Counted from the whole stretch's first letter, positions 9,801-41,892 are shown. The stretch: 49,335 nt of DNA, filler included, from Catajapyx aquilonaris (GCA_000934665.2; 2 parts of 2 records of this genome joined end to end with filler, not necessarily neighbours in it); one strand, 5' to 3'. Notes: generated by a model not told the origin, from the letters alone. Numbers and translations: made by a program.

Positions 9801-12414
9801 GACACTGCCAAGTTCCATTGGCTGTTTATAATAAAGGGAAGTAATGAGGACAGTTTTGAGAAAAATGACTTTGAAGGTCATACTTGTGAAATTAATTCAG
9901 TGTTCTTTTCGGTCATTTATTGCAGAAGTATGCAGATTTCGCCACCTTGATTTTAACTGAATGAAGTGCCGGTACTATCCTTTGGGTGTATGTTCCTGGG
10001 CATAATTCAATTTAGACATTTTTGTGGGTTGACCCATTATTGCATACCACTGTCCAATTTTCCCTCCGCTTTCGATCACTTCTGTGTACGTTGACTGACA
10101 CCTAGTTCAACGTATGTACCAGACGTAACACACGGGTTTGCTGCTATAAATTTATAAATAAATAACATATTTTGATAATATACGTATGTAAGGCCAAAAA
10201 AAAATTGTTTGCCTGTGGCAACAGAATATTGTTGGTGATTACCATAGAATCAGGCCTATAAATGGTTTCAAATTTTGCACTTCCCGCAATTATCCACGCT
10301 CTTTTTTTCCCCATGCAAAGAACGGGTACCGCTGCTAGTGCAATATATCACTATAATAATTACTATGTAGAAACGAAGACAAAAAATCACCCTAAGGCCA
10401 GTTTTGCATCTGCTGTACACCCCCCTCACATGTTCTGCAGTTCCTGCCTTGCACTGAAGGGAAAGGAGCCCTCCGAACACGACAATTCTCAACCTGGAAC
10501 CTCCCATTAAATGTGCGCAATGTTTCAAATAGTCTGCATCAAAAACATCACTACTACTCACAGCCTTCATCAGATTATGAAATGATTTCAGGTCTTGTTG
10601 GACGGTCTTGATGTGGTTGTTGAGGTTGATGTCACATAGTAGTTACTATCTTGGAAATTTTCTGGAATATTGGAACCTACCTCATTTACTGATATTATAA
10701 TTTTGTCTCGTTTTACGCCGATTCACTTTGCGCCGCTATGTTGCTGGAACCTATTAATGGCGTAAAAGGGGTACTTCCTGCATCCTCTCCATATCTTCTG
10801 AGTAAGCGTAAGCGAAAATCTGGGTGTTTTCGGCCTACCTGACAGCGGAGGAATTACATTATTAAAGGGTTGCAAGTTGCACACTGAAATTTGACGTTAC
10901 GGGCGTTAACGTGGGTGAACTATTCGTTTCCCACTGCATTGCCACATGTTAAGTGCAGCCACAGGGTTGCATGAACAGTTTTTGGTGAAATATTATGGTA
11001 GAAAATTACTCTTTACCACTAATGAGTCATTTAATATTAGCACTTTCAACCAAGGCTGGAAAAAGTACAATTCATAAAAATTATCCAATATAAATGTATA
11101 ATCCTCCCTATTTCTTTGGCCACATTTAGTAGGAAAGAAAGACAAACTTGGCATTTTGATGTACAACTTACTCAGTTGGGGATATAATTAGTCCAAAACT
11201 GAGTTAACATTTTCATCGTGACAGCGACTGTCATTTTTGTTAGGGATAACTTACACTAAAATAATATAATTGTGCGCAACAGCAAATTATTCATGCAGGA
11301 GCTCTTTTAATAAAAATTAGCGAGGATGAAGGGAAATGGCGACCCATTGCACATGGACGTCCCCAGGAATGATTTGCCATGATTGTAAAACCATGTGTAT
11401 CTGCATTTATTTCAGGAAAAAAATGCCGAAGAGAACTTGCAGAATGGGGCCCAGCAAGACATGCACAGAGGGAGACTCTTGGGGGGGAAGGTTTGTCATA
11501 TTTGCAAGAAAAGGTTTAGTCTGGCAGGGTATTTGAATATCCACATGAGAACCCACACAGGGGAGAAGCCATTCATATGCCTGATTTGCAAGAGAACGTT
11601 TAGTCGGTCGGAGCATTTGAAGATACACATGAGGATGCATACAGGGGAGAAGCCATTCAGTTGCAAGGTTTGTGAGAGAAAGTTTAGTCGGTCAGGAGAT
11701 TTGAATGTCCACATGCGGGTTCACACAGGGGAGAAGCCATTCAGTTGCATAATTTGCAAGAGAAAGTTTAGTGAGTCAGGAACTTTGAATATCCACATGA
11801 GGACCCACACAGGGGAGAAGCCATTCAGTTGCGAAGTTTGTGAGAGAAAGTTTAGTCACTCAGGAAGTTTTACTCAACACATGCAGGTTCACACAGGGGA
11901 GAAGCCATTCAGTTGCATAATTTGCAAGAGAAAGTTTAGTCACTCAGTAAATTTGAAGATACACATGAGGATGCATACAGGGGAGAAGCCATTCAGTTGC
12001 AAGGTTTGTGAGAGAAAGTTTAGTCAGGCAGCAAATTTGAATTCACACATGAGGACCCACACAGGGGAGAAGCCTTTCAAGTGCAAGGTTTGCAAGAGAA
12101 AGTTTAGTCAGTCAGAACATTTGAATGTCCACATGCGGGTTCACACAGGGGAGAAGCCATTCAGTTGCAAGATTTGTGAGAGAAAGTTTAGTGAGTCTGG
12201 AACTTTGAATAGACATATGAGAACCCACGCAGGGGAGAAGCCATTCAGTTGCCAGGTGTGTGAGAGAAAGTTTAGAGAGTCAGGTCATTTGAATAACCAC
12301 ATGAGGACCCACACAGGGGAGAAGCCATACAGTTGCGTAATTTGCAAGAAAAAGTTTGCTCGCTCTGGACATTTGAAAGATCATGTTGTTAGATGGCACA
12401 AAGGAGAAAAGTGA
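3862..12414 (+). CDS. Multi-C2H2 zinc-finger protein; exons 3862-4188, 8996-9118, 11416-12414 (~482 aa; 2 isolated fingers, acidic VKVEP region, 11-finger array)
   Basis: ATG in GCAGCCATGG context. Exon 1 has CPQCPNNVFKRKIDLRAHSFTH and VKVEPEEEE; exon 2 has CAHCDSAFATKRDLERHMLKKH; exon 3 has 11 CxxC...HxxxH fingers with TGEKP linkers. All junctions are GT-AG, phase 0. Joining of the three exons is inferred. Confidence 0.75.
4790..5370. repeat. Diverged direct repeat pair (~300 bp period), probably inside a DNA-element relic
   Basis: AGGTCACTAGTTTGTGA, GTCACTGAAACC and GGTGGGGATATGCACCCGTA each occur twice, about 290-310 bp apart. Confidence 0.7.
6080..6822. mobile_element. Non-autonomous element with ~200-bp terminal inverted repeats and AT-rich core
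   Basis: 6080-6283 is the reverse complement of about 6617-6822. AATT occurs at both ends, and the paralogous site (about 20421-20437, CTCATAATTTGCA) is empty. Confidence 0.9.
6883..7158. mobile_element. hAT-type MITE
   Basis: TIRs CAGAGGTTCCCAAACT / AGTTTGGGAAACTCTG; exact 8-bp target duplication GTATAGAG (6875-6882, 7159-7166). Confidence 0.9.
7933..8180. mobile_element. MITE, PIF/Harbinger-like ends
   Basis: GGCCGCTACACAAATTCGGCGGAAGGCTGAGCGG and CCGCTCAGCCTTCCGCCGAATTTGTGTAGAGGCC form ~34-bp TIRs. The superfamily is inferred from the termini only. Confidence 0.8.
11416..12414 (+). CDS. Zinc-finger array exon (11 Kruppel-type fingers, 84-bp tandem repeat)
   Basis: ORF 11395-12414; TTTCAG acceptor at 11415; repeated CACACAGGGGAGAAGCCATTCAGTTGC unit. 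Confidence 0.97.
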   Translation, partial: EKNAEENLQNGAQQDMHRGRLLGGKVCHICKKRFSLAGYLNIHMRTHTGEKPFICLICKRTFSRSEHLKIHMRMHTGEKPFSCKVCERKFSRSGDLNVHMRVHTGEKPFSCIICKRKFSESGTLNIHMRTHTGEKPFSCEVCERKFSHSGSFTQHMQVHTGEKPFSCIICKRKFSHSVNLKIHMRMHTGEKPFSCKVCERKFSQAANLNSHMRTHTGEKPFKCKVCKRKFSQSEHLNVHMRVHTGEKPFSCKICERKFSESGTLNRHMRTHAGEKPFSCQVCERKFRESGHLNNHMRTHTGEKPYSCVICKKKFARSGHLKDHVVRWHKGEK

Positions 12415-19800: not shown

Positions 19801-20630
19801 GTCTTACCAACGTTATTGAGATAAATGACATTTTTTTTCGCACCTGTACATGTATTTGTTGGGGATAATTTTTGTACACCATATCATATACCTACTTTCC
19901 TCATCAGATGTCACATTATCAACGTCTGGGGAAGAAAGACTCTGAATGAAGGCACGGGCCTCCTCTAACAAAATAATGTGGAAGCACAAGATTCAGAGTA
20001 ACCCAGCTCCAGGAAGTTGGGTTACTCTGATTCTTGTTACATTATTTTCCACCTCCTAAGGGGTGGAGTTGGGTCGTAGTATTTCTTGTGCAGGTACTTA
20101 CAGCCATGCACTATACAGATCGATCATAAAATGCATTTGCCTCTCTCTTTTTTTTTAGTTGTGTCACTTCTCTTCTTGTCTACTCAATTTTCTGAGTTCC
20201 TCATAAGTCATAACTGTCCTTCTTCCCTATGGAATGCATGCAATATGCTGACTCCTTCATTTATACCAGATTGATTGCTGGAAATAGCAGTAACTCCAAT
20301 CAGCTACATATCTAGACAAGAATGATAGTCTCAAAATTCATAACGCAGGAACATGCTTGATTTGGCCTCTGGTTGGTTTGGTAATATTACACCAATTGAA
20401 TTATAGATTGTGATGCCATTCTACTCATAATTTGCATCATCCTGTTAGCATATTCATTGTTAAAATTTTATAACCTGTAAAGTCAATTTCCCATGTTCTC
20501 ATTGTAGGTATTGGAACCATTCATCCTGATGTACCAGCTTCTTTATTGTGCCCATTGCGACGGTGCATTTGCTACGAAGAGGGACCTGGAGAAGCACATG
20601 ATGAAGAAACACATCAATCCTGAGATTCAG
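16824..20630 (+). CDS. Second copy of the zinc-finger gene, exons 16824-17141 (or 17159) and 20508-20630; array exon not present in window
   Basis: Near-identical to exons 1 and 2 of copy 1, with open frames and intact splice sites. No TGEKP array is found between 20631 and the gap at 24750. Confidence 0.7.
17351..17575 (+). mobile_element. tRNA-derived SINE with Deu/Nin-like core
   Basis: A box TGGTCTGGTGG and B box GGTTCAAACCC, then TTCGGAGGGGAAGTAAAGCCATCGGTCCC...GCATGTTAAAGATCCC. The resemblance to the Deu/Nin SINE core is from memory and was not searched. Confidence 0.75.
17745..18102. mobile_element. Degenerate palindromic (fold-back) element
   Basis: AGCTGATCTCCCCCCACCAAGGGGGG...CGCTAGGATCA (about 17784-17833) is an imperfect inverse of about 18002-18050, with further weaker matches inside and outside. 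Confidence 0.65.
18830..19678 (+). mobile_element. 5'-truncated non-LTR retrotransposon (LINE) 3' end
   Basis: ORF 19172-19495 contains CSHCN...FHILHECLLFRNLR, a CCHC motif typical of LINE ORF2 C-termini. It is followed by a pyrimidine-rich 3' UTR, AATAAA and an (ATCAA)n tail at about 19661-19677. The 5' boundary is approximate. Confidence 0.8.
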
Positions 20631-20645
20631 GTAATGCAGTATATG

Positions 20646-20727
20646 AATAATAATAATCATCATCATCATCATCATCATCATGATGCTGCACATGAGGCTG
20701 CACATGAGGCTGCACATGAGGCTGCAC
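20646..20727 (+). repeat. Compound microsatellite (AAT)n(CAT)n plus (GCTGCACATGAG)3
   Basis: Read directly from the sequence, just inside the intron after exon 2 of zinc-finger copy 2. Confidence 0.95.
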
Positions 20728-22034
20728 TGGGGTGGGTCACCAGTGGGTGGGAAGGTCGCATGCATACCACACTCTGACCAGGACACGCGACCCTCTGGCC
20801 TTGAACTCCCCTACCCAAAATTAGTTTAATTTTATCCCAGCCTGGAGCGGAAAGTGGGAAGTGGCTCGCAATGCACAAAATATATAACAGGAACATAAAA
20901 TCACAAGTATGAATTTGTTAGCAGACTTAAATTTAGCGGAAGCTAATTGGTCCGATAGCGGCTTACAAAGTCACTCCCCCACAATTATATTATTGAATTA
21001 ACATTACGATTGTTATCAGAAATGTTTTCCGATTATGTCAATTTTGCTTAGGACATGATTTACTGCATTTCTGACGACAGCTACTGTATTTTCTCAGAAT
21101 GCATCATCTATATGCTTGCATTGCACCGCCGAGCCCTCCGATTGGTCCGCCCCCGTATTGTTGCCGCCACCTCTTCCCATTGGCCCCCGTCCATTGTTGC
21201 TGCGTCGTATTTATGACCCATTGTTACCATGACGCCTCCGATTGGCCCCCGTTCCGAGCATGCGCAATGGGAGTGGAACACGTCCAGTTGCCTCCTGACC
21301 TCCTTGGGAGAAGGTCGCTTTTTTTCCGTCTCCCGCCGCCGTCATCGTCACCTGCCGGACCTTTTCCCCATTCCCCACCTATCCTACCAGTCCCCCCTTC
21401 GCCGCGGGTATAGCTGGTTTATTGAAAAATGGCCGGTATGCACTGGGGGAGAAATGTAAGTTCGAAATTCTGACCTTAGCATTAGGCCTACTGATCGGAC
21501 TGCTTTGGATGTGCGCGGTGCTTTCACAGGTGGGAAGTTCAGTACACTCTCTTCGAGGCAGTTCTTTCGGTGTAGTGTCGGAAACTGACTATACCGTCGA
21601 ATACGTAGAATCGAACGTAAATAATCGGGTTCCAAATCTACCCACGTTCCAATCAGCCAGGAATGCACAGTGTTGGTCTTCCAATGGTGCCAACTGGCAG
21701 GTTGTTTATACAGTCATTGAGTTGGCACAGCTGGCAACCAACAATAGAATCCAATTACACTGTACTCACGATTACCCAGGTGCGGATTATCCGTGCATCG
21801 CCATAATATAAACATTTAAGTTGCATGGGACGATGGAGGGCAGCAAAACCTCCAGGCTTCCAGGCGGAACGCCTTCTACTTGCCGAGTGAACAGGTTATG
21901 CTGGGATGTTGGGATAATAATATAATATATCAAAAACTTTCCCTTCGGTAAAAAAAGAGAAGTAAGACCTCCGCGGCGGAATAAAAGTATTGAAACAAGG
22001 CAGGCGCACGTAAGACCTTCACCAATTGATTTAA

Positions 22035-22604
22035 GCTGTACCATAGGTCTTACTCAAGCAATTTTCAATTTACTGCTCATGATATCTCCTTTCTGAAAAC
22101 AAATTTGTGGAATTTCTGTCGTACTACTAGTTACTTCTAACTTAGCAGTACCAGTGTAGTGCAATGGTACTGCTATAAGTAACTACTGACCTATAGTTAA
22201 TAGTAATAATAGTAGTACGACGAAAATTCCACCCATTAATTTTCCATGAGCCACTCCATATTAGTGTTTTATGACATTAGGAACTTCAATATTAAGCACA
22301 TTGAATTTCTATGCGATTAGTGCGAATTATTGCCATGATACATTCATGCACAATCGTCACCTCTTTTAGATGCTGATTTTAACTCTAACGTTTAATTTTT
22401 CACATATAAACGTTAATTGATGAATTTTCGAGGGTCTTTTTCGATTGGACCAAGTCTGTTCGATGGGTTTAGTTTTTCCCCAATTTTTTTCTTTTCATAA
22501 TAAAATCCTATGTATACTGCTCTGAGTATTAGTTTGCAGCAGTCATTTTACGAGCCGTTCCGTACCGTACTTGAGAATTGCTTGAGTAAGACCTATGGTA
22601 CAGC
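22035..22604. mobile_element. TTAA-flanked MITE
   Basis: TTAA-GCTGTACCATAGGTCTTACTCAAGCAATT ... AATTGCTTGAGTAAGACCTATGGTACAGC-TTAA; perfect 29-bp TIRs. Confidence 0.9.
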
Positions 22605-22671
22605 TTAAGGGGAGAACTGAGTTTTGACCTTGGAAAAAACCGATTTTGCAATTTTAATATATGTCACAGTG

Positions 22672-24645
22672 GGGTGATTCCATGACAAATCAGGCAAAAT
22701 AAATTCAAAATGCAACCCTCATGTTCGCTATGTCCATGATATTTGGATTGTGATATTGGAATGGGATGTGAAAAAGATCTAACGTGAAAAAAATGACACA
22801 TGTGTCACAGATGCTGAGTAGCCATGTGACCTAGAATGTGTGAAATAGCGCGGTACCCCTACATAAATCAATTGCTGTACAAGTTAACAATAATTTTTAA
22901 GGAATGCTTTTGGCCTTCTTGTATACTTAACCGCGAAGGGTGCCTAATACATGCCAGATAATATTTTTATCTCAAAAATGGCTATACTGTTTTGAGGTCA
23001 AAATCTTTGACCTTTGACCTGAGGTGTGTGGACATCCATAGAAAAATTCTGAAAAAATTACACATATACCTCGACCCATTTCATATCTGACGGCCAAGAT
23101 TCTACGATGTAGTAAATTTTGTTTTCCCGGGAAAAAATCCGATGTGAACACGTACACGGCCGCTCAGCTGGTAGGAGTTGGGTTATGAGGGGATTTTACA
23201 CTCCCTGTTCCCGCGCTTGGTGACTGGTATGAACTATTCGTATTCGCCGAGATTGTGCGAAGGTAAGTAGCATATGGAAAATGGAGATGAACAATTATTC
23301 CAGTCCACATACCAGGAAGACCATTCAGCTTACCAGGTAAGGTGCCCTATAGAGTCATGTCGACCTACACCTAGGGGTCGTGCAAATACCACGTGACCGA
23401 TTTAAGGCCACTTTTTGACCACCCGTGACCGACCGTGGTATACATTGGAACCCCCCCCCCCGTTTTTCACGTAGTTTTTTAAAATGTCAATGTTATCAGA
23501 AAAAACTCGATCGAAAATGGTAGCTCCTCAACTAAACTGTTTAAGCACGTAAAAAACATGTCTTCCCATGTTTTCGGGGTCGCTGATTTCTAATTTTAGG
23601 TTATTTTGAACCCATGTGCATCTGTAAAAGCTCCCATATGTGCCCACTCACCGTGTTCAGAGATACCACGTGAACTGTCGCCGACCCCCCCCCCCCCCGA
23701 TCCCCCCGTGACCAACCGTGGTATATCCAAGGGTATATATCAGCAAGCCCCCCTCCCCCCAAAACGGTCACGTGGTATTTGCACGACCCCTTAAGAAGTC
23801 CTCCTGAAGAAGTTCTCAACATTGACAAGGAAGTGCTGTGATCCCTTCAAAATATCCCTGAGGCAATTCGTACGAAAGGACTAAGGGCTGTCAGTGACGC
23901 TTGGTACGAGAAGTTGAAGAATGTAGCACCTTCTGCGCACTACCTGGGCAAAAGATCTGCCCCGAATGTGCTATCAAAAGAAAGACTATAATATTATGCA
24001 GAATTACTGTTTTAATAGGTTTGACAATTTTTTTTTCTGTTATGAAATTTACTACATACTGGAAACTTGGTAATCGCGTCTGTGGTACGTAGTTGTACAT
24101 GCATATTTATTTTCATAATTTTCCATGGAACATACGTGTGACGATTCATATGATAATTATGCTACATTAGTGTTTTAGTAGGCGGGATAATTTTTTTCTC
24201 TGTTTTAAAATTTACTACATTTTGGAAACTTGGCACCCACGTTTGGAGTACGTCATAGTTCGCGTCTATTTATTTTCAGAATTTTCCATGGATGTCCACA
24301 CATAAAGGTCAGAGGTCACGAACTAGACATTAAGAAACTATGTTCTGTTTTGACATTTTCAAAACTTTTGTGCATACTCATATGACGATTGGGATGTTTT
24401 GCACCTGTGAAAACAAACTTTATATCTACATCGTGTATATTTAATTTGGTATAAATTACTTTCGGAGACCCTGTTATGATTTTCCCCTGAAATTAGGCAA
24501 CACTTTTTCAGTTGACCTATGAACTTAGAGTGAAACAAAAAATTGCATAGGTATCATGTCACCATGACTATGTCACTCACCAATTTTCATTGAGAAAAAA
24601 AATGGTGGGGTTGCATGCTTTGCCTGATTTGTCATGGAATCACCC
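22672..24645. mobile_element. ~2-kb non-autonomous DNA transposon with 4-bp target duplication
   Basis: 27-bp TIRs GGGTGATTCCATGACAAATCAGGCAAA / TTTGCCTGATTTGTCATGGAATCACCC; AGTG on both sides; no transposase ORF. Confidence 0.88.
23374..23790. mobile_element. Nested MITE, Harbinger-like
   Basis: 26-bp TIRs GGGGTCGTGCAAATACCACGTGACCG / CGGTCACGTGGTATTTGCACGACCCC; flanks CTA/TTA. Confidence 0.88.
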
Positions 24646-24749
24646 AGTGTCAACCTTCCTCTTTTATTTGTCACAAACCGCACTCAAAAATTCCAAATAT
24701 TAACGGAGATATGCGCGTTTCAAACAAGCGCGGCACACCCTGGCAGCCA

Positions 24750-24849
24750 NNNNNNNNNNNNNNNNNNNNNNNNNNNNNNNNNNNNNNNNNNNNTTAATTA
24801 ATTAANNNNNNNNNNNNNNNNNNNNNNNNNNNNNNNNNNNNNNNNNNNN
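24750..24849. other. Assembly gap containing an artificial six-frame-stop linker
   Basis: 100-nt N block with TTAATTAATTAA at 24794-24805. Confidence 0.95.
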
Positions 24850-25061
24850 TGTATAATTGATGTATCAGTGTAGTTTATTTAAATTGCTGTTGTCTCCCCT
24901 CACATAGGCCAACGGCCTCGCAGGGTACACTAAATAAATAAATAAAATTATTATTGTTATACTGTATGCAATGCTACATATACATACACTGAATCACTGC
25001 ATTCCCCCAAAATGGTAAATCCTGTCTTGGGAAAATGCCGTGATTGGTATGCGTATGATGC

Positions 25062-28009
25062 CTATTTCAAGCAGGATGGCGAACCTTCAAGTTCCTGTTC
25101 GTGTGTCGTTTCATCACGATCTTTCTGCAGGGGAAATACTGTGGTGAAGTGTGCAGGAATATTTTACCTTCACCCTTGAAGATATTCCTGGAAGATATTG
25201 CTTCATTTTATTCTGGTCCAAATTCCCTTCTTCAAAGGACCACTTTTCCGGAGGATCTCTCAAAACGAATATGACACGAAGACGGGTGTCTGCCTCTGTG
25301 ATGAAACATTTGCTTGAATTACTCCTGCAAAATATATTTATCAAGCCAATACATACCTGCTTGGGCAGACAGTTCCCGGAAGAACAACAGGTTGTCCAAG
25401 CAATCGGCGCAGTGGAAAAGGGTGATTTGAGTGTGGTCTTCCGGGTTGTCCAGGACAGTCCGAATAAGCTGGACAGCCGGAGTGACCCCAACACCACCAC
25501 TGATCAGGACCATATGGTCCAGGACGTTTGGTTCATACTCGAATCCTCCACAAGGACCTCGAAACTCCATCGTATCGCCTGAAATCCAGCACAATTTGAA
25601 GTAATTGCTTGGTTTGACAATATTATAGGTAAATTAGTACCGGGTCTGATTTGTCTGAAAGCTTTTGACACAATTCCGTCCGATTCAAGCTTGACGACAA
25701 TTTCCAGCTGTCCGAAACGATGTGGGGGTGACGTTGGAGAGAAGAATCGGGTCTGAACAATTTTTCCATCTTCTGGTGACAATCTCACCTGCATATAGCT
25801 CGTGTTTTTTCAATTATTTCAATGACTGACTATTATAGACCTGATTACCTGAACGTATTGTCCTGGAAGACATGCAATGTGGTCCGTCCCATTTGGAAGG
25901 GCAAACATCATGATGAAAGTGTCTATCCCGCACTCGAATTTTGACACAAGCTTGAGTGAGCTGTACTTTTCCGGATGCAAACCTGGACCATGATTGGATC
26001 CATCAGGAGTGGTTAATACCTGAAAACGAATGTACAGTATGTAGTGATTAGGGACACCGCTTTTTTGGTTGACTTACTTGAACCAAATGCTTAGGAGGAG
26101 CTGTGTTGAGCGGGTTGTCAAAGTCTTCTTCACCATTTGCATGTGGACTTTCAGATTCCGCTTGTCGCATCAACTCTTTTGCCAGGAGAGCCTTGTCCTC
26201 TGGTTTCATCTTGTTCAGCTCTCGATGCAATGTGGGAAGATGCGGATTTCGGTCCCTGTAGAATGAATTATGTCAGTGTTTCTATATGGCTGATTCATAC
26301 ACCAATATTTTTACCACGGATCAAGTCCTTCCTGGCCGTACACACACAGCTTTCCCAGCAGAACCTGCAATATTTCGTTGGACGGACCCATCACCCATCC
26401 AGCTTTGGAATCGCGCAGAAATCTCTCGACGCCTGTGAAGAAATCGCTGTAGTGACCCAAAATTCTTATAGAAATGACTGGTATCACCTGTTTCTACTTT
26501 GTATCCGGATCCTCCGCAAGCTCGAAGCATGTTGTCTGAGACATCGCTGCTGGTCGTGGTCGAGATGTGTTTCAGCATGGCTGCACTTAGCACATACTTT
26601 GATCTGACAAACAAGTCATCTTTGGATATCTATAGTTCTTGTTCAATTTTTTTGCAACATGCATTACCTTGCTTTGAAGTTCGGATCTTTGTAAAGCGAC
26701 CAATCGCAGTTGTTGGTAAGTGTGTCGAAATGAGCAGCGTACGAATAAACTGCTATCCTGCTGGCCATGATGTTGGCTAGGCTTACTCCAAAATGAGTCT
26801 GAAAAATCGTGTGTCAGTGACGTTCTTCATCGGAATTTGGTTGTGCTAATTATACCTGCACCGGAACGTAATCGCAGATCCGGAAGCTGTTGTGTGCGCT
26901 GCTCTTGGACGTGACGTGCCTCTTGGCCGCGTCCATAGCCGCCAGAGACACTCCATTGTAACACGCGGAGAAGAACAGCATGCCCAGTGTCATGTGGTGC
27001 TCCTCATTTTGAGCATCGGCCATACCTGTCAGCAGGTACGCAATTACTCAGTTGTTCACTCTAGCAACCCAACAGTGTACCTGTCCCTCCGATGATTCTG
27101 TCCTTCTTGAGTATCCCTTCGCAGACAACAGGACCCGACTGGTTGCCCCGCATTCCCATGGCGTCCCAATTGTTCGTGTATGTCCGGACTTCTTCCTGCA
27201 AAATGTTGAATTTATTGTCCAACTTTGCAACTTTTAAAACTCTAATTGACAGACCTTGAACATCAAGTAGTGAGTGGTGCTTGACATGTCACCGGCCAGG
27301 TCAGGGTTTGCACAGTTGACCACATACCAATCCGCATATCCGGCCGAGGTGCACCAACTTCCGTATTTAAGCAACCGGATATGCTCTTGGTCCACAGTCA
27401 TGCATTTTGAAGTAAGAGGTACCCACAAGTGAGCTCCTGTGTATATGAAAGGCAGTTTGCTGAGCATTTATTTCTCTCTATAAGAATGTAGCTTACCTGA
27501 TGCTGGATCGCTGACACTCTCAGTACCGACCAGCTTCTTCTTATCGACGTTTCTCAGCAACTCTTGTATGATGGGACTGTCGTGGTGATGTCCAAGCAGG
27601 AGACTCAGTCCGGTCAGATGCATAGCTATACATGTGACTGTGTTAATCAGGTTCTTATCGACATATATTAGTACTTACTGTACACCATAGCAGTGCTTGG
27701 ACATCCATATCTGGCTATAGTCTCGATAGCCATTGCAGCCCCCACGTGATTCTCGCCTCTTCCGCCGAACTCTTTGGGCACGAATATTCCAAGCAAACCC
27801 AGGTCGGCCAATGCGTCCAGAATGGCCCTCGGAAATTCACTATTTTTGTCGTACCTGGCCTGCAATTATGGGGATTAGTCGCGGTTTTGGTGCCAGTACC
27901 GGCTCGAGAAATTACTCACGGCATTGGGCCTGATGACCTTTTGGCATAGGTCTGTTATTTCCTGTTGGAGTTTCTTCTGATCCGGAGTCAAGTACCAATC
28001 GGGTTCCAT
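25062..28009 (-). CDS. Paralog A: ACAD-fold flavoprotein fused to cytochrome-b5-reductase/FNR-like domain (~15 exons; start and last exon uncertain)
   Basis: Hand-spliced GT-AG exons give MEPDWYLTPDQKKLQ...LGLLGIFVPKEFGGRG...YGCPSTAMVY...WDAMGMRGNQSG...CGGSGY...VERFLRDSKAGWVMGPSNE...PGQYVQ...RFFSPTS...RGPCG...LISGGVGVTP. An in-frame upstream exon at about 28315-28390 may extend the N-terminus. Confidence 0.88.
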
Positions 28010-28994
28010 CTCTGGTTTTCCTAATTAAATTTGTGGAACCCTCCTCGACTGTACTGTAAACTTGTATGCAATATTACTAGTTTGACTCATAAAGCTAATA
28101 GCATGGATTGTGTAACAACTGCAGTCTCAATAACGTGGGAAGGAATTTGCCTGGGCATATTCGCAGCCGACTATACATCATTCCATCTAATTTATATTGC
28201 AGTGAAAAGTTTGCAAACTTTTACATTGCCTGTCAGATAGGACCATGAAAGTATAACCAAAGAAAATGAACTAATATTGACTATAAGTTATGCCAGAAGC
28301 AATATATTACTCACCTGACTCAGGGAAATCACTTGTTACCTTCGTATGAATCGCACCTGCTGTAAAACTCGGCTCTTTTGCACGGAATGCCTGAATGCAA
28401 AGTGATGTGTAACGGAATTAAAACTTAGGTGAGACTGAAAAAACTGTGTGCCGTGCATTCAAATGGCATGTTTGATGTGTTGTGCATATATGATGAGTCA
28501 GGAATTAGGAAAACCAGTATTACTGGTTTGTAATATTTTTTGTTGGATTAGGTGCTTCCTGGTTGTTACTGAAATGCGTAAGGAATGTTCTTAGAATGAT
28601 CACCGGTGGTAGCTTACTTGTTTGAGATTTAGTTAATGAACTAGGCGAGAAATCTGGAAAAAAATTATACATCACTTTCCATTTCGTTAAAAACTTGAAA
28701 TATATTCATCTCTAAAATTTTATTAGCTACTTATTAAGCTGAACATACAATTACAGCATACAAAAACATGGAACAGTATTGAATAGTACTCAACCAATAT
28801 TAATATATTATGGCACTAGCTCACAGGAGCTGCCAATATTGCATCAGCTGCGCGCATTTTGATTCACTGAGAATAATACTTGGTTGTAAATGAGGAAGTA
28901 CATAATTATGAAGTAGCGTGCCTTGTCACTAATTAAACATGCTAGTTATTTGGTTATTATTTGAAGGGTGTTTGATTACGACACGCCCTTGACA

Positions 28995-31900
28995 TTAGTC
29001 CTTGGAGGAGTGAGAAGAGAGATGCGCATTTCTTCCGTACACAGTTCGGATAAACTCGGTTCCGAACTGACCGTACACGAATATCGAATCCGAAGGGAAA
29101 GACATCCAACGAAGACTTTGCATGCAGGAAATCACCACACTTGGTCCAGCGCAGATTATAACCTTAGGAAGAACATATTTTATTTAAAAGGCATTCTATT
29201 CGCAAAAAAAGATTTATCAGTTTGTTCGCTCTTCCACTTACTTTTTCTCTTATGCCGTTGGGAACTTGGAGATATTTCTCGAACTTCTTACGATCCAACA
29301 GGCCTTCTTCGCCTTCCCAGTTTTCGGGCGGTTCTCTCAATATGTAGATGATTTCCATTCGCTTGTCAGATTCTGAAATAAAAAAACCAGAGTACGGATA
29401 AATAAGCAACATGAGCAAAAGGAGGCTAAGAAAGTTCGATGGACAAAATTCTCATTACCTGCATAGTTGTCGAGTTCCTTCCGACAGAGTATGTCTTCCT
29501 CTGAGTCGACTGCGTAGAATAAGGTCACTTTGGTCTTATCATCGGGGTTGGCCTGGACACTTCTGAGAAGCTGGAGGGCAGGAGTGACCCCGACCCCACT
29601 GCCCACAAGAACCAGTCTCTCCAGAGTGTTTGGAAAATACTCGAATCCGCCGCAAGGACCACGGAATTCCAGTTCGTCACCTGTATACATGGCAGCGGAA
29701 ATATTATACGATGACGTCAATATTAGGGACTATCCTGCGGGTTCACCTGGTTGTATATCCTTTAGCTTCTGAGAGAGCAGTCCTTGTGACTCGTACTTGG
29801 TGATGACCTGCAGAATGCCCTTCTGGTCTGGCCGAGACACTGGGGAAAAGAAACGCTCCTGGGGCACCTCACCTGGCGATTGGATCCTCACCTGAAGAGT
29901 AATTAATCTTGTAATCGCCGTTCAATTACGATTAGTTGCACACACTCTCAGTACCTGTATGTACTGGCCTGGTACGCATCCCAAGTCACTGGTCGGTTCC
30001 TTGAGCGCGAATGTGAACTCGCCCGTCTTGTATGCGATCTCTTCCTTGCTGATCAGCTTCAGAGGCGTGTACCTGTCAGGGTCAAGCCCTGCCGATTGAC
30101 CCGAGGTGACCTGGCTACCCGTGACTGGAGGCCGGGTATTAAATGGGTTGTCAAAGTCCTCCTCTCTGTGCGACACAACTCGTTTGGACACATCCACATC
30201 CTCCTGAAGCTCCTTAATCAACTCTTGCTTCTCCTCAATTGTCATCTTCTTCAGCTCGCGGTCAATGGACGGACGACTCGCTTTCTTCTCTCTGGAAGAA
30301 GGGGTCAATTTACAAGAGGTCACAGTGTACAGTAATGTGAACGTACGAGATGTCAAACTCCTGGAATCCGAGCAGACACAGCTTCCCTATGATCTGCCTT
30401 GATATCTCATTGGAAGGAGCCATGACCCAACCGGCCTTTCCGTCTCTAAGGTACCGCTCCAACCCGAGCTCCGTCTTGTACCCGGTACCTCCGCAAGTGT
30501 GCATCATCATGTCCACCACCTCGCTAGTGTTGGTCGTGCTCTGTAGCTTTATCTGGTAGAACCACGAGGAGTACGGGGACCTAGGAAGATGACCCGGGTT
30601 CTTATGAAGAGACCAGTCGTTCCTGGACTTTTCATCCAGGAGACGGGTCACAGAAAAGAGTGCCAGTCTGGTCATGTTGGTGCCACTGATAGCGTCACCG
30701 AAAGAGTCCTGCGTGGAAGAATCAGCCAATCAGCAACATGTTTATAGGAAACCGGACCGGTTCTGGAACCGAACCGGTTGCTGCTAAGGACGCCGTACCT
30801 GAATAGTAGGGTAGTCGCAGATGCGCATTCCAACGTCGGCAAATCCTTTGGTGGTGACATGTCTTTTGGCCAGGTCAATGCTGCCCATTGCGATACCATT
30901 ATAGCAGGAGGATAAAAGCAGAGTAAAGTAGGCCTCACACTCTTCTCCAAGAATCCGTCCCTCTCCTGGAATTCATCATCGTAATTAAAATCAGTGATCC
31001 GTATCGGTGGAAGTCTCACGGACTGAAGAGAGACGCAAGTCCGCGAGATTCGCAGTTACTTGCCGCTATTGCCGATGAGCCTTTCCTTCCCGAGGATTCC
31101 CTCGCAAATGACGGGTCCTGATTGGTTCCCGTGCATTCCCAAGGCCTCCCATTCGTCAGCGAAGGCCCGGACTTCTTCCTGAATTAAACCAACGGCAGCG
31201 CGATTTATTTAATTGTTGTACCATTATGAAGTCGGTTCTTACCTTCATGAGCAAATACAAGCTGAGGTCATGAGGGTCGCCCTTGTAGGTCGGACTTGTC
31301 GCGTGGATGCCGTACCAGTCGGCAAATCCGGCACTAGTAGCCCATGCGCCGTACTTGATCAGACGGAGCTTGTCGTCCGGAAGTATCTTGCATTTGGACG
31401 TCAGCGGAAACCAGAAGTGACCACCTGTCCAATCATCATTAATCGTCAATTAATTATCACATTATGAACGTCACATGAAAATTAAGATTAATTTGAACAA
31501 CTGGATCGATCCATATCAAGAAAGCTGCTAATTTGTTAACACTTCTTGCTGGTTTGTATTATCTGAGAGGACTCCAACCCGCTTTTTGACCTCTGCACAC
31601 ACGCTATCAGCGACCCACTTTTAATTTCAAGTGCTTTCAGTGCACTGTGAGAACTTGTAGTTGTCATTTCTGTTGGCAGCCACAAAATTAATTACGAAAT
31701 TCCATTATGGTGTACTGAACCTGTTGAAGGATCGCTGGTGGCGCTGGTGCCCACCAGTTTCTTCTTGTCCAAATTCCTCAGGAGGTCCTTTATGAACGGG
31801 TTGTCGTGATGGCGAATCAGCAGCAACGATGTGCCGTACAGATGCATAACTACGTTAGACAAATGTTATTTAACCTCCTCATGTATTTATGACCAGTGAT

Positions 31901-32291
31901 TATCTTACCATAAACCATGGCAGTGCTTGGACAACCATATCTTGCGATGGTTTCAACCACCATGGCAGCCCCCACGTGACTTTCGCCTCTTCCTCCCAAC
32001 TCTTTAGGAACCAGCAGTCCCAACAGTCCATGTTCAGCCAAAGCGTTCAAACTGGCTCTCGGATAAGTGTAGTGCTTGTCGCAATTAACCTGGATCATAC
32101 GCACAAAATAATATTGCAAATAATGCCACATACGTGAACAACATTACCGCATTTGGTCGTATCTTCTTCCTGCACAACTCGATGACCTCTTCTTGCAGCT
32201 TCTTCTGCTCCTTGGTTAGAAACCAATCGGGATCAAACTCAGCTCCGATGCCCCAGAAGGGATGCTGTCCCCAATTTTTCGACGCGTCCAT
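28995..32291 (-). CDS. Paralog B: ACAD-fold flavoprotein fused to cytochrome-b5-reductase/FNR-like domain (12 exons, ~760 aa)
   Basis: Exons 32291-32148, 32089-31909, 31849-31721, 31424-31243, 31178-31064, 30965-30799, 30708-30347, 30291-29955, 29891-29747, 29680-29459, 29372-29242 and 29162-28995 sum to 2283 nt in one frame. ACAD motifs: GLLGLLVPKELGGRG, LGMHG, CGGTGY, LERYLRD. FNR motifs: PGQY, RFFSP, GLLS, RGPCG, GSGVGVTP, IICAGP. Confidence 0.92.
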
Positions 32292-35650: not shown

Positions 35651-37701
35651 ATGTTGGTACCCATCGCTGTTATGTGTGCCCTGCACTTGGTCGGAGCAAC
35701 ACCAGGTGAGCATTGTGTATACCACAATTTTTTGAGGGGATGTTTATCGCTAAAATGTGGCAACATGTATCCCCCAAAGTAGGTGAAGGTTACTACAGTT
35801 CCGTACGAAACATTTTTTGATTTTATTTTTCATGAACAGCCGATTCGTACGATTTCATCGTGGTCGGAGGCGGTTCTGCCGGTGCAGTGGTAGCCAACAG
35901 ACTGTCCGAAGTGCCCCAATGGTCCGTCCTACTGGTGGAAGCCGGAGGTAAGCCTACCTACGAGTCGGACGTACCGTACCTGGTATCGGTTGAGAAGTTC
36001 ACGAGCCTGGACTGGGGATATCAAACCGAGCCCGAACCGGACAGTTGCATCGGACATGAACATCGTCCTCTTCCTTGGCCCAGAGGGAAGGTTTTGGGAG
36101 GAACCAGTGTGCTCAACTCCATGTTGTACTCTAGAGGGAACCGACACGACTTTGACCTCTGGTCCAAATTGGGCAACACCGGTTGGGGTTACGACCAGGT
36201 GCTACCTTACTACCTCAAGTCCGAAAACAACCACAATGCGGAGTACGTCAAGAGTGGGTACCATGCCACTGGAGGTTACCTCTCAGTTGGAGAAGCGCCT
36301 TTCCTCAGCAAGATCGGAGAGGCATTTCTGAAGGTCAGAGCTCAGGGCTGGGTCACTTATTGTTACTACCACTTTCCGGTTCATTTGCAGGGTGCTTCTG
36401 AAATGGGGTACGACGTACGGGATTGCAATGGGAAGAATCAGACCGGGTTCATGGTCATACAAGGGACTGTGGACCATGGGAAGAGAGACAACACCTACAG
36501 GGCCTTCCTGGAGCCGGTGATGGGCCGGCCCAATTTGGACATCTTGCCCAACGCTAGAGTACAGAGAGTGCTCATTAACAGTAAGCCAAATTTTAATTAA
36601 ATCGTGTACACTGCTTTACACTGTCCGCATTTGCAGGCGTAAATAAGTCGGCATACGGCATCGAGGTGATGTGCAATGACAGCAGCGTGCACCAAATCAT
36701 GTCCAGCAAAGAGGTCATCCTGAGCGCAGGAGCCATCAATTCCCCTCAGCTTCTTCTGCTCTCTGGAGTGGGTCCAGCTGACCACCTCACCTCCGTTGGG
36801 GTGCAGGTGACCCTCGATCTTCCAGGGGTTGGTCTGAACCTGCGTGACCACCTGTCCTCGGTGGCTACTTTCCTGGTGGAGCCTCAGGTCAGTCTGAAGC
36901 CTGAGAGGGTTCTGAACGTCAACAACTTCCTGGAGTGGCTGGAGAAAGGGGATGGTCCACTCAGTGTTCCAGCAGCTGAGGAAGGAATGGCCTTTCTCAA
37001 CACAAACTACGCTCCAAAGTCAGGCGACTGGCCGGACATCGAGTTCCAGTTGGTCAGCATGTCCCCTGCTTATGAGGCCATGCAACATCATATGTTCGCG
37101 ATGGACCAGGAATCATGGGCCAAATACAGGAAGGACCTGGACAACATGGACAGCTGGATGGTGGTGGCCACTCTGATGAGGCCTAACAACACTGGAGAGG
37201 TCAAGCTGAGAAGCAGCGACCCCAACGACCCTCCTCTGATCGCTCCCAACTGCTTGAGTGACCCGAATGACCTGGAGCCGCTTCTGGAAGGGTTCAAACT
37301 CGGGCTGGAACTAGCCAACACCAGCCTGTTCATGGAGATGAAATCCACATTCTGGAGTCCACCAGTTCCAGCATGCAAGGAGTACAAGCCCGGAACAAAC
37401 CAGTTCTGGAGGTCAGGTCATACCCATTCTTAACCTCAGTCGGTTTTACAGTGTATTTCTATGTGACAGGTGCTACGTGCTACACACTGCCTTCGCCAGC
37501 TTCCATTCGACTGGCACGTGTGGGATGGGATCGGACGACACTTCTGTAGTGGACAATACCCTGAAGGTTCATGGGTTGACCGGACTTCGTGTCATAGACG
37601 CGTCCGTCATGCCCACCCAACCCACTGGAAACATCAACGCGGTCACAATAATGGTTGGAGAGAAAGGATCGGACATGATCAAGGCTGATTGGAACGCCTA
37701 A
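35651..37701 (+). CDS. Secreted GMC (glucose-methanol-choline) oxidoreductase, glucose-dehydrogenase-like; exons 35651-35705, 35840-36333, 36391-36580, 36637-37411, 37470-37701
   Basis: Signal-peptide-like MLVPIAVMCALHLVGA; FAD motif YDFIVVGGGSAG; RGKVLGGTSVLN; EVILSAGAINSPQLLLLSGVG; catalytic His/Asn pair in FHSTGTCGMG and GNINA. Splice phases are consistent. Confidence 0.95.
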
Positions 37702-38006: not shown

Positions 38007-39874
38007 TCACCTGCAGCATATTTCTTTCAAGAATGCAAGGAGAGCTAGAGTGATTCCAACTTGCAACAATAGAAAAGGGCCTTTAATTTGTGTCAGTGCA
38101 AAAACCTTTTGGTATTCATCTGAGATATTACTGGCCGCCCTTTCCTTTCCGTGGGCCAACTTCTTCATGAATTCAATGTGGTTGAAACACTTAATCGCAA
38201 GACCGATACTGTTGTACTGAGACTTGGGTCCAGTAATTGAAGTTGTTTGAGTAAATGCTTCCCTTGCCTATGGCCATTGACTGATATGTTGCGAGACATG
38301 CGTCCTCAGATATGAACGTGCGATCCAGAGCGTCCTTAATCTTTTCTTCAAAAATCTCCAAAACGAAATCAATTTTTAAGCAAACTCTATCCTCCTCAAA
38401 AATCGTTTAAAAACATTGATCACCCTCTACCTTCTGAAGTTTTGATAGAAATCGCGATAATCCTTCCTTGTTGTCATCTGCCGAGTTTATTATCAGAAAA
38501 TACGTGTACTCACGGGCGTTTATCGAGAACTTTGAATCAAGCAGCTCTGCCATAGTTTTAGGCACTATTTCCTTAGGAGGATAAGAGAGAAGTTGAAACA
38601 ACTGTGCCCTGTACCCTGTGGTCACAATGAGAGAAAAATAAACCCAGGCCCATACAAATATTCTGACATGTATTGCTGTAGATTTCAAAGTTGCATTCTG
38701 CTCCAGCATAACCACAGCTAAGTACTTACAACCTGCAATTAGAGCTTTCCATCGCTCTGCCTTTCCAATTCTTTTATGCAGAAGCAATAAAATTACGGAA
38801 CACATGAAGAAACATGTAACAAAGAGACACCATGATATCGGTTGGTAAGGATACGTGAGAATCATTGGCGAGTTAATCTCTAGTGGCTGGCGGGCCATAA
38901 ATGTTATACGGTTTTGAATATGGGGTGTGATCATGTCGAATATCGCGTTTGTCAGTTCAATGAGAAGAGTAGTTTGCAGAAAAGACACTTCACCTCTGTT
39001 GATGTCGTTCACCAATTCAACAACTCCGGCCAGGCTGGTTGAATTAGGATCGAAGGGAATGACTTTCGTGTACCACTTGAAATGAAGAGCCTCTCCCAAA
39101 AAGCAACTCAGAATCTGGATCACGGAGAAAGGGTCGCAAATGTCGCTGGTGAAGTTGTCCTTTTCAGCAAAAGAAATGGTGTTTAGTAACTTGCCATGGA
39201 AATCGGTTGAGTAGTCTTTGAGGAGCAAATCTGCAAGATTGCTTGCTCTCAATTCCTTCCTTTCAATTGTTGGATTGCCCTCGTCGCAAAAAAAAGCAGA
39301 CAGACGACACCATGGCGATGTCATCATCATTCTTCGTGGACAATGCGACTTTGTGTTTCAACTTTGAAGCCTGTTGTTCCAGCAAATATTCCTCTGGCAT
39401 CTCCTCATCTCTGACCCAAATGATGAAATGATCCTTGCTTCGTTTGACCAGCAATATGCCTTCGGGATCCAGCAACTCGTTCATGGAGTCTTCGTAATTG
39501 TCGCTGCAAATTGTGATGAAATGGACCATGCACTTGCTGTTCCGAGGGTTTTCTTCGAGTGACCAACCTTGGATGTGAATTATTGAAGGAGGCAACTTCG
39601 AGCAGTCCCATCGTCTTGGCTGTGACTTGGCCATCAGAATAGTTGGTCTCCAAGCCAGGGACATGTTGGTCACCAGATTCTGCAGAGGTGATGGCCAACC
39701 TCCGAGGTCATGGGTCACCTCCAAGGGGCAGTTCAAGTTCACTCTGTCGCCAATTTTCAACAATACCCACAATGACCGATGGACATGTACAGATTCGATG
39801 AATGTTGACATCATAAAGTCACCTACCACTGCATTAAGAAACAGAATTATGATAATGTTGTTAGCAATTTTCAT
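38007..39874 (-). pseudogene. Intronless divergent ionotropic receptor (IR)-like pseudogene
   Basis: Signal peptide; LTYPYQPISW-M1; RIFVWAWVYFSLIVTTGYRAQLFQLLSYP (M3); terminal TM LTQIKGPFLLLQVGITLALLAFLKE. Lesions: frameshift at the T8 run about 39288-39295, in-frame TAA at 38407-38409, second frameshift near 38220. Confidence 0.82.
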
Positions 39875-41062: not shown

Positions 41063-41892
41063 GCTGCTAATAGCGCCACCTCTAAGATGGTCTGCAGACG
41101 TCGGGTTATCAGGTGAAAGACCAAGCAAGGCCCAGTGTGGAAAGCTTTTTAATTCCTTATGAACATTGTGAAACCACGGAGAGACATCCACACGGACAGG
41201 GGGAGGAGGAAGTGGCCAAGGAAGGAGGGTGAGCGAGAGGATGGGGCGGCTGAGGCCTGCCTGCTGGTGTCATCGCTGTTGCACACGTCCTTTGTGCAAA
41301 AGCACACGTTGTCCTGATACAAATCAGCGCAATCCTTGTACTTCTCATAATTCTTGTCTGATGCTTCAATACAACCGTAGCTGGTGATACTACCTTTGGA
41401 CAAAGAAAAGGATCCGTGAATGGGTCATCTTACTACGATGGTCTAGTGTTGTCCTTGTTGTTGTCCCTGTTACAACAGTCCCCNGCTGCTAATAGCGCCA
41501 CCTCTAAGATGGTCTGCAGACGTCGGGTTATCAGGTGAAAGACCAAGCAAGGCCCAGTGTGGAAAGCTTTTTAATTCCTTATGAACATTGTGAAACCACG
41601 GAGAGACATCCACACGGACAGGGGGAGGAGGAAGTGGCCAAGGAAGGAGGGTGAGCGAGAGGATGGGGCGGCTGAGGCCTGCTTGCTGGTGTCATCGCTG
41701 TTGCACACGTCCTTTGTGCAAAAGCACACGTTGTCCTGATACAAATCAGCGCAATCCTTGTACTTCTCATAATTCTTGTCTGATGCTTCAATACAACCGT
41801 AGCTGGTGATACTACCTTTGGACAAAGAAAAGGATCCGTGAATGGGTCATCTTACTACAATGGTCTAGTGTTGTCCTTGTTGTTGTCCCTGT
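41063..41892. repeat. Near-exact 422-bp-period duplication of the last Ly6 exon region, probably an assembly artefact
   Basis: 41063-41471 matches 41485-41892 with two substitutions seen; single N at 41484 and 41893 bound the second copy. Confidence 0.85.

Follow-up and report, generated by a model that had tools for sequence, protein, structure and literature searches.

Two tandem genes of Catajapyx aquilonaris, here termed A and B, encode proteins in which a domain of the acyl-CoA dehydrogenase (ACAD) fold is fused to a cytochrome b5 reductase-like domain, and in which both catalytic glutamates of the ACADs are missing. The first-pass annotation of this DNA had held that the two are not ordinary acyl-CoA dehydrogenases and that their substrate is perhaps not a CoA ester, without naming a substrate or noting the fusion; this is supported by the absent Glu and Arg residues, by the b5 reductase fusion, and by the flavin reductase and TMAO demethylase genes that neighbour bacterial relatives, and we infer that dehydrogenase activity is absent. 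For the family as a whole we predict, at what we consider an even chance, a self-sufficient flavin monooxygenase that converts TMA to TMAO, of which the animal proteins would be a one-piece, fused form.

Organization of the locus

Genes A and B both lie on the minus strand and together span positions 25114–32291 of the window, that is, of the whole 49 335 nt stretch analysed, filler included. An open gene model and spliced contigs define gene B (28995..32291) as 12 exons encoding 760 aa, with exons 1–6 at 32291–32148, 32089–31909, 31849–31721, 31424–31243, 31178–31064 and 30965–30799, and exons 7–12 at 30708–30347, 30291–29955, 29891–29747, 29680–29459, 29372–29242 and 29162–28995. The contigs originate from one public run, X1, whose kind is unrecorded, and skip all 11 introns of this gene. 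Intron 5 is of the GC-AG type, with a contig skipping 98 bases there; the alternative of a GT donor at 31059 paired with the AG acceptor at 30965 was discarded, as it breaks the frame, whilst the GC donor keeps it. A single 1334-base contig runs from the exon bearing the WVMAPSNE motif (exon 7) through the reductase exons as far as the 3′ end of B, and the ACAD/reductase fusion is therefore one transcript. Over its full length, B displays 47–52 % identity to fusions from crustaceans.

Gene A (25114..28009, minus strand) contains 14 exons and harbours the same fusion in a more divergent form, being 51 % identical to B. Two of its 13 introns are supported, by low-depth contigs of run X1, and an unspliced contig covers 25085–25295. 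The last reductase exon, of some 55 aa carrying the C-x-G-P motif, is absent from A, which reads through to a stop at 25116–25114, and a search of window positions 20000–25300 did not recover it. An N gap at 24750–24849 marks the join of two contigs, with G000:C3240 ending at 24749; the missing exon could thus reflect truncation or the contig break at this gap, though none was found on either side.

Across 120 near-invariant columns (≥95 % identical within the family), B deviates at 10 and A at 25, with 48 animal fusions showing a median of 4 deviations and a maximum of 11. Of the two genes, B more plausibly encodes an intact enzyme, whilst A may be degenerate and decaying, or retuned. Given this divergence of both genes, and the shortfall of A by its last exon, our claim is stronger for the family than for either gene.

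Several further features were recorded elsewhere in the window. A GMC oxidoreductase gene with introns (35836–37698, plus strand; Pfam GMC_oxred_N/C) is separated from the gene B start by 3.5 kb, and an ORF at 38407–39357 (minus strand) shows a weak, ionotropic-receptor-like match to ligand-gated ion channels (E 0.0025). A C2H2 zinc-finger array occupies 11395–12414 (plus strand). Together with the tree described below, these three neighbours indicate an arthropod genome. Two near-identical cysteine-rich segments, 422 bases apart at 41152–41424 and 41574–41846 (minus strand), resemble a Ly6/quiver-type C-terminus; they stem either from duplication in the recent past or from faulty assembly, the latter option arising because single Ns occur at 41484 and 41893.

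Both catalytic glutamates are absent

The established catalytic Glu positions of ACADs are the C-terminal column used by MCAD and SCAD and a column in helix G, where an adjacent Arg binds the CoA ester; both catalytic columns are named in the title of a PDB entry, 'T255E, E376G mutant of human MCAD'. The motifs quoted in the first-pass annotation are indeed present in both genes, with WVMAPSNE in B at 30429–30406, WVMGPSNE in A at 26397–26374, S.CYNG in B at 30912–30895 and the corresponding segment of A at 26969–26952, all on the minus strand. At the C-terminal site, HMMER aligns the motif of the family, ungapped, with KITQIYEGTNQIQR of PDB entries 3pfd, 8i4p and 7w0j, such that Gly or Ala falls on the Glu of YEGT, and a MAFFT-linsi alignment with 19 ordinary bacterial ACADs returns the same register. 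The MCAD/SCAD catalytic column is thereby occupied by Ala403 in B (30418..30420, minus strand; both alignments) and by Gly387 in A (26386..26388, minus strand; motif and MAFFT-linsi alignment).

For helix G the register is set, by sequence alignment only, by two IVD-type ACADs (L103 and L106: LDYERAVLAGG), and MAFFT-linsi assigns the Glu-Arg columns to Tyr263-Phe264 of B (30925..30930) and Leu246-Gly247 of A (26982..26987), both on the minus strand. The earlier claim that the two catalytic glutamates are missing from both paralogs is thus borne out, with Ala403/Gly387 at one site and Tyr263/Leu246 at the other, as is the loss of the helix-G Arg, which is replaced by Phe264 in B and Gly247 in A and is absent family-wide. 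As regards the helix-G segment quoted for B, the absence of Glu holds in either register, but its position needs correction, as the Glu-Arg columns lie one residue upstream of where that quotation starts.

These substitutions extend throughout the family. Amongst 194 relatives, comprising 50 animal proteins and 144 of bacterial length, the E376 column contains Gly in 176, Ala in 18 and Glu in none; no Glu occurs in columns 263–265 of helix G in any of the 194, and 188 have Phe in place of the helix-G Arg. Since Glu is absent at both sites in every relative, neither chance nor decay accounts for its loss.

Candidate substitute bases were also considered. E407 (of SNE) was rejected, as it aligns with a Glu or Gln that ordinary ACADs also have there, as was E261, which falls in the column of the conserved helix-G Asp and has Met as its counterpart in A. 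Glu259 of B (30940..30942, minus strand; E241 in A) is nearly invariant, with 192 Glu, 1 Asp and 1 gap in the 194, and is Glu also in an Rv1679-like sister protein. It would be a possible base were the family to consist of true acyl-CoA dehydrogenases with the reductase domain in place of ETF, a reading to which the ordinary ACADs as nearest PDB folds and sequences lend some credence, as does the existence of ACAD-fold dehydrogenases without the C-terminal Glu (in 7p98, the residue is Thr). Glu259, however, lies five residues upstream of the helix-G catalytic column, the Arg that would hold the CoA ester is Phe in nearly all relatives, and no ETF, CoA-ligase or beta-oxidation gene was found among the neighbour clusters recurring in at least three of 80 bacterial loci (the best 80 of 550 confirmed); we regard true dehydrogenase function as very improbable.

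Domain structure and relationship to known flavoenzymes

Pfam matches on the exons of B delineate an ACAD-fold domain (approximately aa 20–425; 30352..32234, minus strand; Acyl-CoA_dh_N and Acyl-CoA_dh_1) and, following a helical linker, a cytochrome b5 reductase-like FAD/NAD(P)H domain (approximately aa 498–737; 29067..30080, minus strand), for which NAD_binding_1 gives an E-value of 1.5e-12 and FAD_binding_6 one of 5.6e-4, just under cut-off. Folds were predicted for two relatives as stand-ins for B and A, namely an isopod fusion (P0005) and a bacterial protein (P0079), with the isopod model reaching a pLDDT of 93.7 and a pTM of 0.92. Its N-terminal part matches the ACAD-fold entry 4kto with Z 48.2 and an rmsd of 1.7 over 373 residues (Z 45.2 for the bacterial protein), and its residues 505–746 match cytochrome b5 reductase 2eix with an E-value of 8e-45. 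For both models, true ACADs rank above the group D monooxygenases, with Z-scores for the isopod protein of 44–48 and 35–40, respectively (36–40 for DnmZ, HpaH, TdsC and 5z8t). Sequence searches of the PDB agree with this order, with KijD3 (3m9v, 4kcf) and DnmZ trailing ACADs by a wide margin at E-values of 1e-15 to 1e-16. Relatives score far under the NCBIfam cut-offs for HsaA, DszC and HpaH. The ESM Atlas offers automatic names only (putative dibenzothiophene monooxygenase, short-chain ACAD). No FMO family appears among the matches listed for the exons or the relatives, the fold being ACAD plus FNR and not an FMO-like Rossmann arrangement.

With MCAD, SCAD and IVD, the family shares its fold (Z 45–48, rmsd of about 2 Å) and the W-x-T, Gly-Gly and Ser/Thr-x-Glu flavin-contact positions, at 20–25 % identity. 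It differs from them in having no Glu at either site and no helix-G Arg, in possessing a reductase partner, and in the TEP-x-x-GSD loop, which is changed to SDP-x-T-G-G/S-H. Its best NCBIfam match is Rv1679/FadE16 (NF049984), at 175–215 bits for the five relatives scored, far below the 600-bit cut-off. A Rv1679/FadE16-like sister group reaches 441 bits against this model and has, as the family does, a V-M-A-P motif without Glu, but its members are of about 380 aa and adjoin a phosphonate-binding-type protein rather than tdm. Such sister proteins, at L085:5573–6715 and L086:5449–7519, are without the catalytic Glu and represent another uncharacterised, non-canonical ACAD group, for which the literature search returned no function.

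The C-terminal domain displays 32–35 % identity to NADH-cytochrome b5 reductase (target TM 0.8–0.9) and retains its R-x-x-S, G-T/V-T-P and C-G/A-G-P motifs, but has no membrane anchor and is fused behind the ACAD fold. Arg552 and Ser555 (R-x-Y/F-x-S) are present in 48 of 48 animal fusions, and B also retains the T-P and C-G-G-P columns, of which A is without the last. Where human b5 reductase has an Asp, which we take to be its NADH-specificity residue, A and B both have Arg, and 33 of the 48 animal fusions have Gly.

Group D monooxygenases (C2-HpaH, DszC/TdsC, HsaA, XiaF, KijD3 and DnmZ) similarly combine an ACAD fold (Z 35–40) with the absence of catalytic Glu. According to PMC5481743, the members of this group are oxygenases of the ACAD fold supplied by a flavin reductase, and the N-oxygenases KijD3 and DnmZ belong to it; the bacterial members of our family resemble it further in the adjacent HpaC-type flavin reductase (PF01613). 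There are, however, differences: the family is nearer to true ACADs in structure, carries about 45 extra C-terminal residues and has a small tertiary amine as its proposed substrate, whilst its animal members depart from the usual partner type by fusing a b5 reductase-type domain, where group D has a separate reductase. It is by analogy, then, that the family would work like a group D monooxygenase, an analogy drawn here from sequences, gene neighbourhoods and models.

Distribution and phylogeny

Full-length fusions of approximately 770 aa were found in decapods, krill, a stomatopod, amphipods, an isopod, barnacles and several corals, as well as in the brachiopod Lingula, the annelid Owenia and the chiton Liolophura, with Priapulus contributing a partial example. 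The rows listed include neither an insect nor a vertebrate name, and the family rows no named copepod. Bacterial relatives are unfused proteins of about 465 aa with approximately 50 % identity to B. In a quick, unrooted tree, a single clade (SH-aLRT 99) unites 33 animal rows to the exclusion of the bacterial members; the partial priapulid protein (P0111) is unplaced, and A and B emerge as long-branched sisters among the crustacean rows. One further record, P0192 (454 aa), joins the C-terminal part of the family to DUF1989; it probably arose by read-through, or by a frameshift, into the neighbouring tdm.

Decapods have several paralogs, and within the 285 Mb, intron-rich C. aquilonaris assembly, which was used for own-genome searches, no fewer than six additional copies or fragments with varied motifs are present: a tandem array on C324 in which two copies are whole and two partial, one copy on C1500 and another on C5867, which is 87–91 % identical to B and possibly its allele. 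A and B, moreover, are both altered at Trp272 and His292, and A additionally at Trp355. Such multiplicity, together with the long branches, would fit a family in which the oxygenase chemistry is the same but the animal copies, and above all the C. aquilonaris paralogs, have shifted to other amines or heteroatom compounds in detoxification or specialised metabolism. As B retains 110 of the 120 near-invariant columns, and other animal members also deviate at 10–11 of them, we view such a shift as unlikely.

Bacterial gene neighbourhoods

As summarised in PMC5520151 and PMC13390433, bacterial methylamine degradation proceeds from Tmm, which yields TMAO, through Tdm, which yields DMA, to DmmABC, which yields MMA. 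Neighbourhoods of the family were counted at the best 80 of 550 confirmed bacterial loci, of which 13 belong to Xanthobacter. Tdm, the TMAO demethylase, is encoded at 54 of these 80 loci, and a flavin reductase at 48, all 48 passing the PF01613 cut-off and 34 lying within 500 bp; DmmA and a TmoP-like permease each occur at 13, and Tmm at 3. A typical unit consists of the oxygenase, the flavin reductase and tdm, with tmoP and dmmA nearby (L057, L087), and further neighbours include GmaS, Mgs, Mgd, Amt, Fhs and amine oxidase genes, the family often being located inside GmaS/Mgs/Mgd clusters. Two small families without Pfam or NCBIfam matches also recur in the methylamine clusters, at 18 and 10 of the same best 80 of 550 loci (examples at L056:5514–5927 and L024:5324–5926), and are candidates for other missing methylamine steps.

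Fifty carrier genomes, picked from the 80 loci for longer contigs, all contain Tdm (42 over cut-off), whilst Tmm is found in 3 and DmmA in 21. Neither Tmm nor DmmA is present in 26 of the 50, and the gene could therefore fill either gap. Three loci (L002, L006 and L020) hold the family gene, tmm and tdm together, in genomes without DmmA.

Two broader samples were then compared. The first comprises 301 genomes from the order of G036 (Rhizobiales), centre included, with two weak matches of 190–195 bits excluded as sister family, and contains Tdm in 67, Tmm in 55 and the family in 11. Family members occur in 11 of the 67 Tdm-positive genomes versus none of the 234 Tdm-negative ones, and all 55 Tmm-bearing genomes are likewise Tdm-positive. 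Within 25 kb of tdm there is either tmm (42) or the family gene (9), but never both. Genome-wide, 7 of 11 carriers have Tmm, versus 48 of 56 non-carriers (p 0.10); for DmmA the figures are 10 of 11 versus 39 of 56. The second sample was drawn, without the centres, from 381 genomes of the G043 order and 271 of the G014 class, and comprises the 24 of them that are Tdm-positive; in these the family occurs 5 times, Tmm 14 times and both together in none, with DmmA in 1 of 5 carriers versus 8 of 19 non-carriers. Pooled without centres, and with kinship ignored, the two samples have Tmm in 7 of 15 carriers versus 62 of 75 non-carriers (p 0.006), and DmmA in 10 of 15 versus 47 of 75 (p 1.0, kinship again ignored). 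As the genomes are related, with Xanthobacter making up part of the loci, and as many are incomplete, these p-values are optimistic and the counts inflated. In the two sampled genome sets, then, the family tends to exclude Tmm but not DmmA.

This distinction bears on whether the family might instead act downstream of Tdm, hydroxylating DMA at nitrogen with subsequent loss of formaldehyde and so replacing DmmABC, or act on both TMA and DMA. The family is always accompanied by Tdm, whose product is DMA; 29 of the 50 carriers are without DmmA, including the three that have tmm beside the gene; and the frequent placement within GmaS/Mgs/Mgd clusters is in keeping with such a role. DmmA, on the other hand, shares the cluster at 13 of the 80 loci, and in the pooled samples it is Tmm, and not DmmA, that is depleted in carriers. 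We therefore consider a step at DMA to be rather unlikely.

Proposed function: a one-piece amine N-oxygenase

Taken together, the ACAD fold without a catalytic base, the reductase partner, the strict dependence on tdm and the local exclusion of tmm make a TMA N-oxygenase the simplest reading. A reductase partner, moreover, appears twice, since animals fuse a reductase unrelated to the bacterial PF01613 partner. In the mechanism that we propose, hydride from NAD(P)H would reduce flavin at the C-terminal domain, and the ACAD-fold domain would then react reduced flavin with O2 to give a C4a-hydroperoxyflavin, with Thr181 at the N5 position, before transfer of the distal oxygen to the amine nitrogen. 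The amine pocket may use His111, Asp148, His154, Trp156, Glu259, Trp355 and Trp400, which are invariant aromatic or acidic residues. In group D enzymes a Ser or Thr at flavin N5 stabilises the C4a-hydroperoxide, as stated in PMC10696468. Bacteria would consume the resulting TMAO by way of Tdm, whereas animals would keep it as an osmolyte or excrete it. The C. aquilonaris assembly has no Tdm-level match, the best scoring 113 bits; a DUF1989 match was rejected as Tdm, as it is a stand-alone gene (L120 3545–6584, G000:C9849, minus strand) divided by an intron-sized gap.

The reaction and pathway position proposed, ahead of Tdm, are those of Tmm and the animal FMOs (class B). Tmm is a single Rossmann-fold FAD/NADPH enzyme, and, the folds being unrelated, the family would be its non-homologous replacement. 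In the opposite direction, the enzyme might be an O2-independent reductase, in which flavin reduced by NAD(P)H passes its electrons to an N-oxide (TMAO to TMA) or to some other acceptor. The partner fixes the direction of electron flow and not the use of O2, and the fold is nearer to true ACADs, which keep FAD bound. TMAO reduction would nonetheless compete with the adjacent Tdm, and the way in which the family and Tmm exclude each other within the tdm cluster points to a shared step, such that we consider this reading quite improbable.

A number of observations count against TMA oxidation itself. The genome-wide difference in Tmm has a p-value of 0.10 in the first sample, and three loci combine tmm and tdm with the family gene. 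The fold is closer to true ACADs than to group D, and Thr181, whilst nearly invariant in the family, is common to ordinary ACADs, which have Thr or Ser in this column. The fusion is found in freshwater and land crustaceans, A and B are long-branched and deviant, and the C. aquilonaris genome contains one FMO-like match. Furthermore, crustacean TMAO is ascribed to FMO1 in PMC9511220.

Implications for TMAO metabolism

TMAO is one of the major osmolytes and protects against pressure. A soluble TMA monooxygenase was reportedly observed in calanoid copepods by Strom in about 1979–80. The extent of TMAO production by invertebrates themselves is described as unevaluated in PMC10077225, and invertebrate TMAO is usually ascribed to FMOs by analogy (PMC9511220). 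Our literature search, which covered few subscription journals, found no published description of the family or of an ACAD/b5 reductase fusion. Database labels for its members (ACAD9-like, YngJ-like, nitrate reductase and b5 reductase) are misleading and, if this reading is right, would be corrected by it.

Somewhat short of an even chance, in our estimation, is the broader proposal that invertebrates, from corals to crustaceans, make TMAO by a second, FMO-independent enzyme of the ACAD fold that is shared with methylamine-eating bacteria, and that became self-sufficient and group D-like when, at an early stage of animal evolution, it was joined to a eukaryotic cytochrome b5 reductase. On this proposal, the bacterial form is what stands in for Tmm, as a so far missing non-homologous replacement, in bacteria of soil and fresh water. 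If true, the family would provide a second TMA-oxidising enzyme, both in animals and in tdm-positive bacteria without tmm, and would constitute a natural one-piece flavin oxygenase.
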